Assembly: GCA_003130835.1 (NCBI GenBank) | Contig: QEXX01000059.1 | Span: 219-64,218 of the forward strand | DNA length: 64,000 bases | DNA from: Anaerolineae bacterium | GTDB lineage: Bacteria; Chloroflexota; Anaerolineae; Anaerolineales; UBA4823 | Reading direction: 5' to 3' | Part shown: piece by piece, positions 49,071-62,927 of the stretch | How positions within the stretch are numbered: position 1 is the stretch's first letter | Layout of the letters: every line of letters starts with the position of its first letter | The notes under the pieces: model-generated | What the model saw: the letters and a program-made list of their open reading frames with translations, nothing else | Told to the model about the DNA's origin: nothing | Databases searched by the model: none | Made by a program: the position numbers and the translations under genes

Positions 49071-49099
49071 TTGACATTGTCTTCCTTTTTTGCTAGGAT
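49071..49099 (+). promoter_or_regulatory. Candidate sigma-70 promoter driving the tandem riboswitch leader
   Basis: TTGACA (49071-49076), a 17-nt spacer, then TAGGAT (49094-49099). It lies immediately upstream of aptamer 1. Confidence 0.45.
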
Positions 49100-49100
49100 A

Positions 49101-49199
49101 GGTTCGAGCACGAAAAGGCAAAGCCAGCGAAAGCTGGGGACGCAAAGCCATGGGTCTACCGTCATCGCAAGATGACTACGACTGCCAGGTTGCCGAATG
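49101..49199 (+). promoter_or_regulatory. c-di-GMP-I (GEMM-I) riboswitch aptamer, copy 1 of a tandem pair
   Basis: CACGAAAAGGCAAAGCCAGCGAAAGCUGGGGACGCAAAGCCAUGGGUCUAC...CUGCCAGGUUGCCGAA matches the GEMM-I core (GGCAAA, GNRA-capped P1b, GACGCAAAGCC, 3' GGUUGCCG), as in Vc2. Confidence 0.8.
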
Positions 49200-49282
49200 T
49201 AATCGAATGTCAATTGTATGTTTGTATTCGACGAGCCTGGCAAAGCCCAGGCTCAATTGCTTGAGTGCACATTACCAATCTA

Positions 49283-49378
49283 CCAAGACCGATAAAGGCA
49301 AACCCGGCGAAAGCCGGGGACGCAAAGCCATGGATCTACAGCCGGCTTAGCCGGCCAGGATAGCCAGGTTGCCGAAGC
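49283..49378 (+). promoter_or_regulatory. c-di-GMP-I (GEMM-I) riboswitch aptamer, copy 2
   Basis: GAUAAAGGCAAACCCGGCGAAAGCCGGGGACGCAAAGCCAUGGAUCUACAGCCGGCUUAGCCGGCCAGGAUAGCCAGGUUGCCGAA has the same conserved core as copy 1. Confidence 0.8.
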
Positions 49379-49404
49379 AGCGAACTGTTTTCTTGCGTTC
49401 TCTC

Positions 49405-49437
49405 AACGGGCTTGGTTATCCAAGCCCGTTTTTGTTT
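49405..49437 (+). terminator. Intrinsic terminator (expression platform of the tandem riboswitch)
   Basis: The sequence is AACGGGCTTGG-TTAT-CCAAGCCCGTT followed by TTTGTTT. It ends about 15 nt before the ATG at 49452 and abuts the GGAGAG RBS. Confidence 0.7.
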
Positions 49438-49451
49438 GGAGAGCAAATCGA

Positions 49452-51140
49452 ATGAAGACCAATCACCATCAACCCAGATCATCTCACTCCTTACTCAGCC
49501 GAGCTTTTTGGAGGGTGCTGAGCGGGTTTGGCATTCCTGGTGCACTTCTAACGGTCTTCTCTGTTGTCCCGCTTCTCTCCGCCCAAGCCGCAAATCCCTC
49601 TTCGAATTTACCGGCTTGTCAGCCATTTGTGCAAGTCAATGACAATGCTTTTGGCCTCGGCGGCGGGGCAGATGGGACATTCAGCTCAGAAGAGGGTTTC
49701 GAAGTGGTGGTCTTCAATGGGCAACTGTACCTTGGTATGGAAGCCGATAACACCATGGGGGCGCGCATTTGGCGCACAAAAGCCGGCGTAACCATCCCTG
49801 CTTCTCAAGCGGATTGGGAGGAAGTTGCGGCTGACCAATTCGGATATCCCTTCGGGGTAACCAATGTCACCCAAAATGATCACATCGATAGCCTAGCTGA
49901 ATTTAACGGCTATCTCTACGCTAGCACCGCCAATGGAGGGAGTAGTACCTATGGGACGCGCGTCTTTCGCAGTCCCAACGGAAATCCGAATAGCTGGGAA
50001 GATGCCCTGATCAACATTGGCGCCGGTTTTGGAAGCGCACAAAACACAAATTTCAAAGATATGCAAGTCTTCAATGGTTGGTTGTGCGGCGGTACGCAAA
50101 ACTGGCTATATGGGGCGCAGGTATGGTGCACTCAAGATGGTTTGAATTGGGTGCAAAAGAATATCAGCGGCTTTGGCAGCACACAATATAACAACAAAAC
50201 TGTTGAGGTTTGGTCGGGATACGTATTTCAAGAGGCTTTGTACTTCGGTGTGCAAAACCTCGGTGCAACTCGCTCCAGTAACTATGATGACTTGGGGAAA
50301 CTCTACCGCACTCGCAATCTGAACGGCACGCCGCAGTGGGAAGAGGTCTTTATCAGCCTGCCCGGTTACCTGAATCGGGTCGATATCCTTGGTGAATTAA
50401 ATGGGTATCTCTACATTACTAGCCGTGGATCAAACGGCGGCATTATCGTCTATCGCAGTTCAACTGGTGACCCCGGCACCTGGCAACAAGTCAGTCTCGA
50501 AGGTATTCATGGCAACACAGCCAACAATGCTGTGATTGTGGACGGTGCGGTAACTTATGAAGGTGGTTTATATGTTGCTGTCAGCAACAACAGCGGTTTC
50601 CAACTCTGGCGCACCTCGGGAGCTGTGCAAGGGGATGGAATGGTTGATTGGGAACAGGTGGGGGGTAGCGGTTTGACCGATGCGAAAAATATCCACTCTG
50701 AACTAGCTGTTTTCAATGGTTATCTTTATGCATGGACATCCAATTACACGCGCGGTCAGCAAGTGCTGCGATCCAACTGTATGGCTGGCGCAGTGATGCC
50801 GTCCCCAACTGCGACGAACACCACCCAACCTAGCCCCACACCAACAATGACACAAACATCGCTACCAAGCCCAACCCCCACCGCTTCACCTACCTCTGCG
50901 CCAACCCAAACCCCAACCGCTTCTCCAACCCCTGCCCCCAGCCAGACCCCAACCCCCACGGCTCTGCCAAGCTACACCCCCACCGCTTCACCTACCACTG
51001 TTCCAACCCAAACCCCAACGGCCACTCCAACTGCAGAACCACCATCACCGTTCTGCCCGCAAGGCGATCAAAGCTGTCAAAGCTCCAACCCCAACGGTTC
51101 AATGTATAGCGTATTCATCCCCATCTTGATAAAGCCATAA
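49452..51140 (+). CDS. Secreted beta-propeller-like protein with a Pro/Thr/Ser-rich linker and a short hydrophobic C-terminal tail
   Basis: 562 aa with a signal peptide (FGIPGALLTVFSVVPLLSAQA). About seven blade-like repeats are centred on FNGQLYLG, FNGYLYAS, FNGWLCGG, EALYFGV, LNGYLYIT, YEGGLYVA and FNGYLYAW. The product name is structural inference only. Confidence 0.7.
   Translation: MKTNHHQPRSSHSLLSRAFWRVLSGFGIPGALLTVFSVVPLLSAQAANPSSNLPACQPFVQVNDNAFGLGGGADGTFSSEEGFEVVVFNGQLYLGMEADNTMGARIWRTKAGVTIPASQADWEEVAADQFGYPFGVTNVTQNDHIDSLAEFNGYLYASTANGGSSTYGTRVFRSPNGNPNSWEDALINIGAGFGSAQNTNFKDMQVFNGWLCGGTQNWLYGAQVWCTQDGLNWVQKNISGFGSTQYNNKTVEVWSGYVFQEALYFGVQNLGATRSSNYDDLGKLYRTRNLNGTPQWEEVFISLPGYLNRVDILGELNGYLYITSRGSNGGIIVYRSSTGDPGTWQQVSLEGIHGNTANNAVIVDGAVTYEGGLYVAVSNNSGFQLWRTSGAVQGDGMVDWEQVGGSGLTDAKNIHSELAVFNGYLYAWTSNYTRGQQVLRSNCMAGAVMPSPTATNTTQPSPTPTMTQTSLPSPTPTASPTSAPTQTPTASPTPAPSQTPTPTALPSYTPTASPTTVPTQTPTATPTAEPPSPFCPQGDQSCQSSNPNGSMYSVFIPILIKP
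50879..51022 (+). repeat. Imperfect 42-nt direct repeat inside the PT-rich linker coding region
   Basis: CACCGCTTCACCTACC(T/A)CTG..CCAACCCAAACCCCAAC(C/G)GC occurs at 50879-50920 and again at 50981-51022. The offset is 102 nt (34 codons). The copies encode PTASPTSAPTQTPTA and PTASPTTVPTQTPTA. Confidence 0.6.
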
Positions 51141-51445: not shown

Positions 51446-51537
51446 CAAGTCACATCGAAAGGGCAAACCCGCCGTGAGACGGAGACGCAAAGCTGAGGGT
51501 CTATTCCTCAAGAGAAATAGATAGTCTGGCTGCCGTG
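51446..51537 (+). promoter_or_regulatory. c-di-GMP-I (GEMM-I) riboswitch aptamer, copy 3
   Basis: CACAUCGAAAGGGCAAACCCGCCGUGAGACGGAGACGCAAAGCUGAGGGUCUAUUCCUCAAGAGAAAUAGAUAGUCUGGCUGCCG has the GGCAAA, GNRA-capped helix and GACGCAAAGC core. Confidence 0.75.
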
Positions 51538-51564
51538 GGTGTTCATGCTAACGGCAGTTTTTTT
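51530..51564 (+). terminator. Intrinsic terminator overlapping the 3' end of aptamer 3
   Basis: The sequence is CTGCCGT-(14-nt loop)-ACGGCAG followed by TTTTTTT. The 5' arm is shared with the 3' end of the aptamer. Confidence 0.7.
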
Positions 51565-51610: not shown

Positions 51611-53074
51611 ATGAAAGAAAGGGTGGGGTATCTTTTCCTAGCGGTGATCATCGCCTTAAGCGGAATGATGATCCTCGCAGGAGTAGCTTCAGCGTCATCG
51701 AATCTTGAACCAGCAAGCCCAGATTGTTGGAACACCATCACGATCAAGAAAGTCACGGAACCGGCTGGAGGCACGGGATTTGACTTTACAATTCGATGGG
51801 GAAGCTACATAGATAGTTTCACACTGAACGATCAGCAAACAAAAAAATACACTCCTAACAGCCATAGCGTTTTTACCGTTACAGAAGCAGTTAAAGCAGA
51901 TCATTATTTGAAAAACATCTCTTGCAACGGGCCAACAGGCGCTCTTTTTAACTATGATTTACAAAACCGACGCGTCATCATCGATCTTAAAACAAATAAG
52001 GTTGATGGAAATATTACCTGCACTTTCACGAACACTCGTTACGGTAAGATCACGGTTTATAAATTCGAAGACCTGGATAATGATGGACAATGGGACAATG
52101 AAGAATCACCCTTGAGCGACTGGGAATTTGATTTATCTGGACCGAAGACAGGCAGTGGAAAAACAGACAGCAACGGAAAACTGATCTTCGAAAACTTGAT
52201 TTCCGGAGAATATACCGTCACAGAAAACCTCGAAGATGAATATACTTCAACCACGGGATTGATGCAAAATGTCACCTTGAACCCGAATGGCGCTGAAACG
52301 CTTTACTTTGGCAATCGACGCTTTGCGATGGATTACGGCGATTTACCCGGCGCCTATGGTCTGACCCTATTCTCTGAAAGCGGTGCTCGCCATCTACCCC
52401 TTGAACAAGGAGACGTTTGGCTTGGTACAAACCGAGATGTCGAGTACGATGGTAAGCCCCATAACGATGCTGTGGGGGATGACAATGATGCAACCAATGA
52501 CGAAGACGGTGTAGTGCGTGGAGCAACTTGGGGGGGTGGCATGGGAGTGATCATGGTCACCGTCAACGGCCCTTCTTGTTTGATGGGTTGGGTTGACTAT
52601 GCAACCGTAACCGAAACGCTTCCCACAAACTTGTTCAAGGAATTCGGGTTTGATTACAAATTCACCGATAATTTCGACAAAGATGGAAACTCATTTTCCG
52701 AGAAAGTGATTGATAACCTTCTCCTAACCTCCGCCGGCACGCATGAGATTACATTCCCCTTGCCCACAGATTTCGGCGGCGCCAGTGTCTTTGCCCGCTT
52801 CCGGCTCTCACCTGCCATTCCGGCAGACGGTAGCGAGGCATTGAACCCTGTTGCAGAGAACAATGGAGCATATCGCTGTCCATCCGTTGGGCTTACAGGC
52901 CTTGCACACGGCGGTGAAGTTGAAGATTATGTATGGACATTTGGACCCACTGCTATCAAAATCAAACAGATCAATGCCGTTCAGCAACATTCAGCTCTAA
53001 GTTTTGGGTGGGGCTTAATTGGTATTCTGATCAACCTATCCGCTTTGTGGTTCATTAAACGCCGACGGAAATAG
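51611..53074 (+). CDS. Surface protein with a Cna-B/SpaA-type domain and a GEVED domain; C-terminal TM helix plus basic tail
   Basis: 487 aa with AAGGAGG as RBS and a signal peptide. KITVYKFEDLDNDGQWDNEESPLSDWEFDLSGPKTGSGKTDSNGKLIFENLISGEYTVTE is Cna-B-like. It also has a GGEVEDY motif, and it ends GWGLIGILINLSALWFIKRRRK. Confidence 0.75.
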   Translation: MKERVGYLFLAVIIALSGMMILAGVASASSNLEPASPDCWNTITIKKVTEPAGGTGFDFTIRWGSYIDSFTLNDQQTKKYTPNSHSVFTVTEAVKADHYLKNISCNGPTGALFNYDLQNRRVIIDLKTNKVDGNITCTFTNTRYGKITVYKFEDLDNDGQWDNEESPLSDWEFDLSGPKTGSGKTDSNGKLIFENLISGEYTVTENLEDEYTSTTGLMQNVTLNPNGAETLYFGNRRFAMDYGDLPGAYGLTLFSESGARHLPLEQGDVWLGTNRDVEYDGKPHNDAVGDDNDATNDEDGVVRGATWGGGMGVIMVTVNGPSCLMGWVDYATVTETLPTNLFKEFGFDYKFTDNFDKDGNSFSEKVIDNLLLTSAGTHEITFPLPTDFGGASVFARFRLSPAIPADGSEALNPVAENNGAYRCPSVGLTGLAHGGEVEDYVWTFGPTAIKIKQINAVQQHSALSFGWGLIGILINLSALWFIKRRRK

Positions 53075-62724: not shown

Positions 62725-62743
62725 CGAGAAAACAAAATCGAAT

Positions 62744-62868
62744 ACCTTCGGGGCAGGGTGCGGTCGCAAACGACCTATTCCCGATCGGCGGTAAAGCCCG
62801 CGAGCGCAAATGAGCGCACGATTCGGTGAAACTCCGAAGCCGACGGTATAGTCCGGATGGAAGAAGGT
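62744..62868 (+). promoter_or_regulatory. FMN riboswitch (RFN element)
   Basis: CUUCGGGGCAGGGUG...AUUCCCGAUCGGCGGUAAAGCCCGCGAGC...GGUGAAACUCCGAAGCCGACGGUAUAGUCCGGAUGGAAGAAGG aligns block by block with the B. subtilis ribD RFN consensus. Confidence 0.85.
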
Positions 62869-62927
62869 AAGCTTGGATAAGGTAGGCGCGTGACAGCTAA
62901 GCAATTTCTCGGTCGCGCGCGAGATGC

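Follow-up and report, generated by a model that had tools for sequence, protein, structure and literature searches.

How would a gene be controlled when its 5′ leader carries two riboswitches of the same class in series? The question is raised by a 64,000-nt stretch of DNA from an Anaerolineae bacterium (contig QEXX01000059.1, positions 219 to 64,218; hereafter the window), in which the leader at 49100-49451 contains two complete aptamers of the class I riboswitch for cyclic di-GMP (c-di-GMP-I), followed by a gene encoding a 562-amino-acid protein (49452..51140, + strand). A first-pass annotation of the letters alone had picked out two aptamers in this leader and had predicted a sharp, c-di-GMP-driven switch of an exported beta-propeller. 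The anatomy described below resembles that of Cd1, the c-di-GMP-I riboswitch of the Clostridioides difficile flgB leader, in which aptamer and terminator coexist, the antiterminator invades the aptamer, and c-di-GMP causes termination and turns expression off (PMC9262584). We favor, with a probability of about 0.65, a reading in which two Cd1-like c-di-GMP OFF riboswitches act in series behind one promoter to control the gene for a predicted secreted seven-bladed propeller.

Two complete c-di-GMP-I aptamers behind one promoter

Searching the leader with the c-di-GMP-I model (RF01051, also named GEMM-I; gathering cut-off 35 bits) returned two matches to the full model on the + strand. Aptamer 1 (49107..49197) scores 76.9 bits (E-value 2.3e-13, model positions 1-87) and carries a GAAA tetraloop, and aptamer 2 (49287..49377) scores 87.6 bits in a direct RF01051 search (model positions 1-87). 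These scores identify both elements as c-di-GMP-I aptamers, as the first-pass annotation had proposed, and the gap between them is 89 nt, close to its estimate of about 85 nt. The annotated promoter is likewise present, as a sigma-70-type element (49071..49099, + strand) with TTGACA at 49071-76, a 17-nt spacer and an extended −10 box, TGcTAGGAT, whose hexamer lies at 49094-99. In a promoter scan TTGACA-17-TAGGAT matches 10 of 12 consensus positions in addition to the TG extension, and transcription should start near 49106, a few bases 5′ of aptamer 1. All 14 aligned leaders share the −35 TTGAC and the −10 TA..AT without change, which supports a single transcript, and the promoter scan found no second promoter-like site on the + strand between the aptamers and up to the gene. 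The leader ends in a translation initiation region (49438..49458, + strand) composed of GGAGAG (49438-43), the ATG (49452-54) and a segment, TCGAATGAAGA (49448-58), that is complementary to the leader segment X discussed below.

The bases expected to contact the ligand are kept in both aptamers. In Vc2 numbering, the G20 equivalent, the unpaired G before the GC pair, is G at 49117 in aptamer 1 and at 49297 in aptamer 2; the A47 equivalent, the A after GACGC, is A at 49144 and 49324; and the GCCGAA segment with the C92 equivalent (CCGA) is intact in each. A third c-di-GMP-I aptamer in the window also has G at the G20 equivalent (GGGCAAA). The GEMM-Ib class selective for 3′3′-cyclic GMP-AMP (cGAMP), which has A at position 20, was set aside with G found in three of three aptamers, in line with the preference for c-di-GMP over cGAMP that had been argued from this base at the outset. 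Because the canonical contact bases are kept in both aptamers, c-di-GMP rather than cGAMP is the expected ligand, and we infer that both aptamers bind it.

Aptamer 2 of one orthologous leader, L016 from genome G020, reads AAAAGCAAAC in place of AAAGGCAAAC (alignment A3, columns ~255-262) and so has A at the G20 equivalent, the signature of cGAMP-preferring GEMM-Ib; judged by this base, the L016 leader might sense two different dinucleotides.

The class label of aptamer 2 requires a comment, because cmscan lists it (49288-49377) as the clan sibling RF03167 (c-di-GMP-I-GGC) at 77.0 bits, an outcome of clan competition by E-value. RF03167 is defined by G for A directly after GACGC, with consensus ACGCGAAG compared with ACGCAAAG in RF01051. 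In the cmscan alignment the window reads GACGCAAAGCC at this place (also given as GACGCAAAG), with A instead of the variant-defining G, and RF01051 scores higher; we therefore rejected the RF03167 label. Many other canonical c-di-GMP-I aptamers of the same genome (L002, L005-L008) and of its relatives carry the RF03167 label in cmscan, and these are full-model RF01051 matches of 58-82 bits, well over the cut-off. Automated annotation of this lineage would over-call the GGC variant.

Conservation of the tandem leader

The source genome comprises 3.4 Mb in 158 contigs and is 94% complete, and its nearest named relatives are Anaerolineales metagenome-assembled genomes. An RF01051 search of the genome found nine c-di-GMP-I aptamers, and only the leader of the 562-amino-acid protein gene has two. 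Orthologues of this protein occur in all six other genomes of the same genus (76-83% identity), in the genus of G020, on seven metagenome contigs and in four relatives at 65-74% identity, and the tandem pair is present in every scanned orthologue leader of these four sets. In G002, where a short contig (C238) retains only the first 116 residues of the orthologue, the pair lies just 5′ of the gene start. A further relative, G022 (61% protein identity), has one aptamer only. Dropping identical copies left 14 distinct orthologous leaders from several Anaerolineales genera, which form the alignment used for the pair counts below; the metagenome scan yielded close relatives only, and the distant leaders were taken from contigs encoding homologues. 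The tandem layout is conserved across these orthologues.

Conservation extends to a linker between the two units, AATTGCTTGAGTGCACATTACCAA (49255..49278, + strand), which is kept in alignments A1 and A3 and for which RNAalifold found no covarying pairing partner. RNAalifold also paired CTTGAGTGC (49260-68) with a GCAGTGGAG segment 3′ of aptamer 2; this helix contains two internal mismatches and does not exist in the window, and we left it out of account.

Tandem c-di-GMP-I pairs are common in relatives of the window genome. Some abut or overlap, with about 0-28 nt between matches (G009:C5:218059-218260, G010:C29:5816-6056, G012:C5:734331-734509, G018:C19:215803-216002, G018:C13:279366-279578 and G034:C431:1-215), and these represent a tandem layout unlike that of the window since they leave no space for an expression platform between the aptamers.

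Each aptamer has its own predicted antiterminator and hairpin

The 3′ end of each aptamer can be drawn into an alternative helix with sequence further downstream. Antiterminator 1 (AT1; 49184..49241, + strand) would pair the aptamer 1 3′ strand GCCAGGTTGCCGAATG (49184-49199) with TATTCG (49225-30) and AGCCTGGC (49234-41), and the latter strand is at the same time the 5′ arm of a hairpin, H1. H1 (49233..49254, + strand) has arms GAGCCTGG (49233-49240) and CCAGGCTC (49247-49254), is followed by AATTGCTTGAG and not by a U-run, and corresponds to the GC hairpin first noticed between the aptamers. When the nascent transcript is cut just past the H1 5′ arm, AT1 is the minimum-free-energy fold in 14 of 14 leaders and lies 10-22 kcal/mol below the aptamer-enforced fold. 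Across the alignment, 94.6% of cells are paired in the outer part of AT1 and 88.1% in the inner part (21-46% with the partner slid), and H1 has 95.5% of cells paired with compensatory changes at three pairs.

The second unit repeats this arrangement. Antiterminator 2 (AT2; 49360..49419, + strand) would join ATAGCCAGGTT of aptamer 2 (49360-70) to GGCTTGGTTAT (49409-19) through 11 contiguous pairs, and GGCTTGGTTAT comprises the 5′ arm and loop of the intrinsic terminator T2. T2 (49405..49437, + strand) consists of AACGGGCTTGG, the loop TTAT and CCAAGCCCGTT, forming an 11-bp stem (49405-49430; 7 GC pairs in a terminator scan), and then TTTTTGTTT; it directly precedes the GGAGAG, as expected of the strong terminator abutting the ribosome-binding site in the first-pass annotation. 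AT2 and T2 each have 94.7% of cells paired with compensatory changes, in T2 at five pairs. An example is L047, in which GACTGCC of the aptamer and GGCGTC of the T2 arm and loop stand in for GATAGCC and GGTTATC of the window. The loop of T2 is itself conserved because it takes part in AT2. Among seven leaders tested, AT2 is the minimum-free-energy fold in three (L046, L047 and L048) and lies 2-5 kcal/mol above the minimum in the window and three others.

In control alignments with the partner strand slid by 1-3 columns, 16-51% of cells were paired, and changes on both sides were found in every one of the four helices H1, T2, AT1 and AT2. As the leaders are related, shuffle statistics overstate significance, and the slid controls together with compensations across genera are the stronger argument. 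By these measures the alignment shows conserved, covarying alternative pairings, predicted as AT1 against H1 and AT2 against T2. Both aptamers of the leader have their own predicted antiterminator and a hairpin. Of the two hairpins, T2 is a full terminator, and a U-run behind H1 is confined to L016, L047 and L048. We read the leader as two riboswitches in series, each with its own antiterminator/hairpin switch, and H1 as the switching hairpin of riboswitch 1 rather than an inert stem.

Three leaders, L016, L047 and L048, show an additional feature 3′ of aptamer 2, where a helix of at least 15 pairs joins the region upstream of T2 to the Shine-Dalgarno region and encloses T2. This suggests an added translational layer in these leaders.

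Direction of control

The sign of control can be read from which strands compete. Neither H1 nor T2 overlaps its own aptamer, so a ligand-locked aptamer does not block its hairpin. Each hairpin has a single conserved competitor, an intra-aptamer strand that takes in the 3′ strands of P1b and P1 as well as the C92 region; ligand binding would sequester this strand within the aptamer. In the absence of c-di-GMP, the 3′ half of each aptamer would be captured by the downstream strand to give AT1 and AT2; as the capturing strand includes the 5′ arm of the next hairpin, H1 and T2 would be blocked and RNA polymerase would read through into the gene. With c-di-GMP bound, both aptamers would be locked, H1 and T2 would form, and T2 would halt transcription 15 nt before the ATG. 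On this anatomy both units are predicted to be OFF switches, a direction to which we give odds of about two in three. Two OFF switches in series would allow read-through only when both aptamers are empty; as each switch would suffice to stop expression, repression is expected to be tighter and steeper than with one switch.

The converse arrangement, in which the second switch, and perhaps the first as well, is ON and c-di-GMP prevents T2 to induce the propeller protein as for an adhesin, is unlikely in our judgment. It draws on precedent, as many c-di-GMP-I riboswitches before surface-protein genes are ON switches, among them the Bc3-5 triple tandem (PMC4759541), and on the ON design of the neighboring third riboswitch. 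In the window a segment preceding aptamer 2, CCAAGACC, can also pair with the T2 5′ arm while aptamer 2 is formed, which is what an ON-type antiterminator would do. However, this pairing, seen in window folds, is not kept in the alignment of sister leaders, and we rejected the helix as an antiterminator; the sole conserved competitors of the hairpins are the strands within the aptamers; and T2 and H1 lie outside the aptamers, so that a bound aptamer is compatible with both.

Several observations nevertheless weigh against OFF control by two switches. The evidence for switching consists of thermodynamic prediction and covariation among related sequences. At equilibrium the full-length leader folds with H1 and T2 formed, whether or not the aptamers are enforced, and AT2 of the window lies at the upper end of the range given above, 5 kcal/mol above the minimum-free-energy fold. 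The frequency of ON control among surface proteins under c-di-GMP-I riboswitches, exemplified by Bc3-5, counts on the same side. In the window, H1 is without a U-run and was not called a terminator in the terminator scan, and segment X, just 5′ of H1, is degenerate and sequestered by a local decoy. Since H1 and T2 form in every equilibrium state, control would have to be kinetic, as in Cd1; full-leader equilibrium folding was accordingly discarded as a test of direction and nascent-transcript folds were used instead.

The comparison with Cd1 (Sudarsan 2008; Landgraf 2022, PMC9262584) rests on the same aptamer class and the same logic of an antiterminator that invades the aptamer. Cd1 is one switch in Bacillota, whereas the Anaerolineales leader places two in series in Chloroflexota and, in the window's genus, the first hairpin is without a U-run. 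Control was measured in Cd1 and is predicted here.

Output of the first switch

What riboswitch 1 would act on depends on the sequence that follows H1. In L016, L047 and L048, from other, more distant genera, a run of U6-U8 behind H1 makes it an ordinary intrinsic terminator, so these leaders hold two complete terminator riboswitches. The leaders of the window's genus, and likewise L045 and L046, keep the H1 stem but have a AATTGCTTGAGTGCAC-type sequence behind it. Within the window's genus H1 probably serves as a weak terminator or pause, or acts by freeing segment X, an output that we infer from the conserved anatomy. Across the leader family the same platform occurs in two evolutionary forms, as a U-run terminator and as a stem lacking the U-run, and thereby offers a natural series for the study of platform change.

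The missing U-run is also the starting point for a different proposal, in which the leader is one coupled device with T2 as its sole output and H1 as a relay, so that aptamer 2 would fold according to the occupancy of aptamer 1, with true cooperativity. When aptamer 1 is empty, the freed H1 3′ arm (CCAGGCT) would capture the aptamer-2 P1b 5′ strand AGCCATGG and thereby release the strand that forms AT2. The H1 3′ arm does complement AGCC-A-TGG better than the aptamer-2 strand does, with a C-G pair replacing U-G, and AT2 alone is weaker than the helix that it has to displace. Such a resemblance is automatic, however, since H1 must mimic a conserved aptamer strand, and pairing of the H1 3′ arm with AGCCATGG appeared in none of four sets of folds, among them the full-leader equilibrium folds and those that gave AT1 and AT2. 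H1 is moreover an ordinary terminator in three genera, which makes independent action the ancestral or alternative state, and we regard coupling as improbable. A cooperative dual aptamer of the glycine type is ruled out by the 89-nt linker containing AT1 and H1 and by the terminator function of H1 in these three genera.

Returning to two separately acting switches, a second possible output of riboswitch 1 involves segment X (49221..49231, + strand), which lies just 5′ of H1 and reads TTTGTATTCGA in the window and GTCTTCATTCGA in most sister species. X is conserved inside an otherwise variable linker and is complementary both to the aptamer 1 tail and to the start-codon region, and RNAalifold proposed a long-range pairing of X (GTCTTCATTCGA) with the start-codon region TCGAATGAAGAC. 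In sister species the complementarity extends over 12-14 nt. In six of eight sister leaders of the genus, no other part of the leader pairs better with the start region than X, and the duplex energies there are −18.5 to −21.8 kcal/mol; L013 reaches −17.6 and L014 −13.8. L013 and L036 show a matched pair of substitutions, U to C in X and A to G in codon 3. Full-length folds of the eight sisters contain the X-start pairing in all eight when aptamer 1 is enforced and in four when unconstrained.

These pairings raise the tentative and rather doubtful idea that, in the window's genus, riboswitch 1 has exchanged its terminator for a long-range translational output while switch 2 acts on transcription. 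Locking of aptamer 1 by c-di-GMP would release a 12-14 nt strand beside H1, GUCUUCAUUCGA, which would reach about 215 nt downstream, past the whole of riboswitch 2, and cover the start codon (UCGAAUGAAGAC). Masking of the start codon by X fits the OFF logic because an empty aptamer 1 keeps X in AT1 and a bound one frees it. If this were true, the same gene would be repressed at two levels, with switch 1 silencing transcripts that escape switch 2. The complementarities suggest such two-level control best in the sister species, and the window copy is weakened: its X-start duplex reaches only −10.0 kcal/mol, and X is paired with the start region in none of the window leader folds. There X pairs locally, in every fold, with AATCGAATG (49201..49209, + strand), a 9-nt repeat of the start-codon context (49446-49454) that is peculiar to the window and was read from the sequence.

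The weakened pairing could alternatively mean that riboswitch 1 is vestigial in the window species, with an aptamer that folds, outputs that are lost, and regulation by riboswitch 2 only. An X-start duplex of −10 kcal/mol, compared with about −18 to −22 in most sisters, a degenerate X that is occupied by the decoy and never paired with the start region, and an H1 that has no U-run and was not scored as a terminator all fit such a loss. We consider it very improbable, as the window retains intact, conserved copies of aptamer 1, AT1 and H1, which would be unexpected for a decaying element. For the favored pair of OFF switches, then, switch 1 of the window species may retain the action of a weak terminator or pause, retain a residual effect through X, or have lost its function.

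Relation to known tandem riboswitches

No tandem class known is more numerous than that of the c-di-GMP-I riboswitches, for which 347 doublets and 12 triplets are listed (Sherlock 2022, PMC9481103), and tandem riboswitches of one class give sharper, "pseudo-cooperative" responses (PMC9481103). A studied example within the class is the characterized Bc3-5 triple tandem of Bacillus thuringiensis, which switches its gene ON (PMC4759541). Like the tandem c-di-GMP-I riboswitches including Bc3-5, the leader described here has complete same-class units in one 5′ leader of a gene for a secreted or surface protein and would be expected to respond more steeply; control is ON in Bc3-5, whereas the window pair looks OFF. 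The suggestion of a steeper response in the first-pass annotation agrees with this literature (PMC9481103), but its analogy to the glycine riboswitch does not extend to a shared platform, since each aptamer has its own predicted switch. Glycine riboswitches resemble the leader in placing two same-ligand aptamers in one transcript leader, and differ in their short linker, aptamer contacts and shared platform, in contrast to the 89-nt linker with a switching hairpin found here.

A further comparison is offered by the tandem thiamine pyrophosphate (TPP) riboswitches of Bacillus anthracis tenA (Welz and Breaker 2007, reference 54 of PMC9481103). The likeness to the tenA pair lies in two independent OFF units for one ligand, each with its own platform, that reportedly give a more digital response without cooperative binding; the differences are the ligand class and the full terminators of both TPP units.

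Tandem architecture itself is already well known, and the leader is a case in which the anatomy is clear and well conserved. We found no paper naming this Anaerolineales tandem family, although the published doublet catalogue was not compared. The locus provides a clear tandem c-di-GMP-I example from Chloroflexota (Anaerolineales), a phylum in which c-di-GMP signaling has hardly been studied by experiment, and the predicted sign of control for a secreted propeller gene is unexpected; the current understanding of riboswitches is unaltered.

The regulated propeller protein

The product of the regulated gene was annotated at first as an exported beta-propeller, and the open reading frame bears this out with a Sec-type signal, a propeller, a linker and a tail. 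The signal spans residues 1-46 and ends in a cleavage-type site (..SAQA/AN), and is followed by seven (F/L)NGxLY-type repeats, a Pro/Thr-rich linker after the propeller, and, at the end, a short hydrophobic tail. The AlphaFold model, for which 50 homologues were used, has a mean predicted local distance difference test score (pLDDT) of 80.7 and shows an all-beta propeller at about residues 50-445, with pLDDT >90 for 352 residues across the repeat region; the tail (..VFIPILIKP, window 51105-51137) is disordered at pLDDT <50. Foldseek places the Photorhabdus seven-bladed lectins PLL and PHL at the top (PDB 5c9o and 6rgr; TM-score 0.63-0.69, target-normalized), with nearly as good matches to sialidases and GH93 arabinanases, and also to sortilin. 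Sequence identity to PLL/PHL is only 10-13%, and the match indicates a resemblance of fold rather than a functional assignment. Signal, repeats and model support a secreted seven-bladed beta-propeller as the product.

No Pfam or NCBIfam family matched the 562-amino-acid protein, and a PF25852 tag precomputed for some homologues was not reproduced in our own search. The more specific idea that the protein is an adhesin or matrix component loses ground on both counts, since no family match backs it and the anatomy points to repression by c-di-GMP; the OFF logic argues against induction at high c-di-GMP. Homologues of the propeller protein number in the hundreds in Anaerolineales and other Chloroflexota, and some of them (P0081, P0087, P0092 and others) are fused to a complete alkaline phosphatase domain (PF00245; E-value 4.9e-51 in P0087). 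These fusions hint that the propeller may be a substrate- or surface-binding module of secreted enzymes.

The C-terminal 34 residues of the propeller protein (97% identity) and a copy of the third aptamer (56.3 bits) both occur on a 2.8-kb contig labeled Candidatus Parcubacteria (L037, RFKD01000001.1), probably a misbinned contig of Anaerolineales origin.

Neighboring genes and riboswitches

An Rfam scan of the whole window found three c-di-GMP-I-type aptamers and one flavin mononucleotide (FMN) riboswitch. The third c-di-GMP-I riboswitch (51452-51564; aptamer 51452-51537, 56.3 bits) lies upstream of a gene for a 487-amino-acid protein (51611-53074) with SpaA/SdrD-type domains and a C-terminal membrane anchor. 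Its terminator 5′ arm, CTGCCGT (51530-51536), falls within the aptamer 3′ end, and its unconstrained fold is the terminator; it is an ON design. With the tandem pair predicted to be OFF and the third riboswitch ON, the two adjacent surface-protein genes would respond to c-di-GMP in opposite directions. If true, the propeller would be made at low c-di-GMP and the SpaA/SdrD-like anchored protein at high c-di-GMP, and this opposite wiring of neighboring genes would amount to a simple switch of surface composition. The arrangement is reminiscent of the adhesin/protease pair of C. difficile, whose members are regulated inversely.

Linkage between a SpaA-like gene, a micro-ORF of 47-50 amino acids and the riboswitch-propeller unit is kept across genera. 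The order of the genes is the opposite of the window's in L045-L048 (65-74% protein identity), where a gene for a SpaA/Big_1/GEVED-type protein and the 47-50-amino-acid micro-ORF both lie upstream of the tandem riboswitch and propeller gene. The remaining riboswitch of the window is the FMN aptamer (RF00050), a full-length match of 99.9 bits at 62740-62872.

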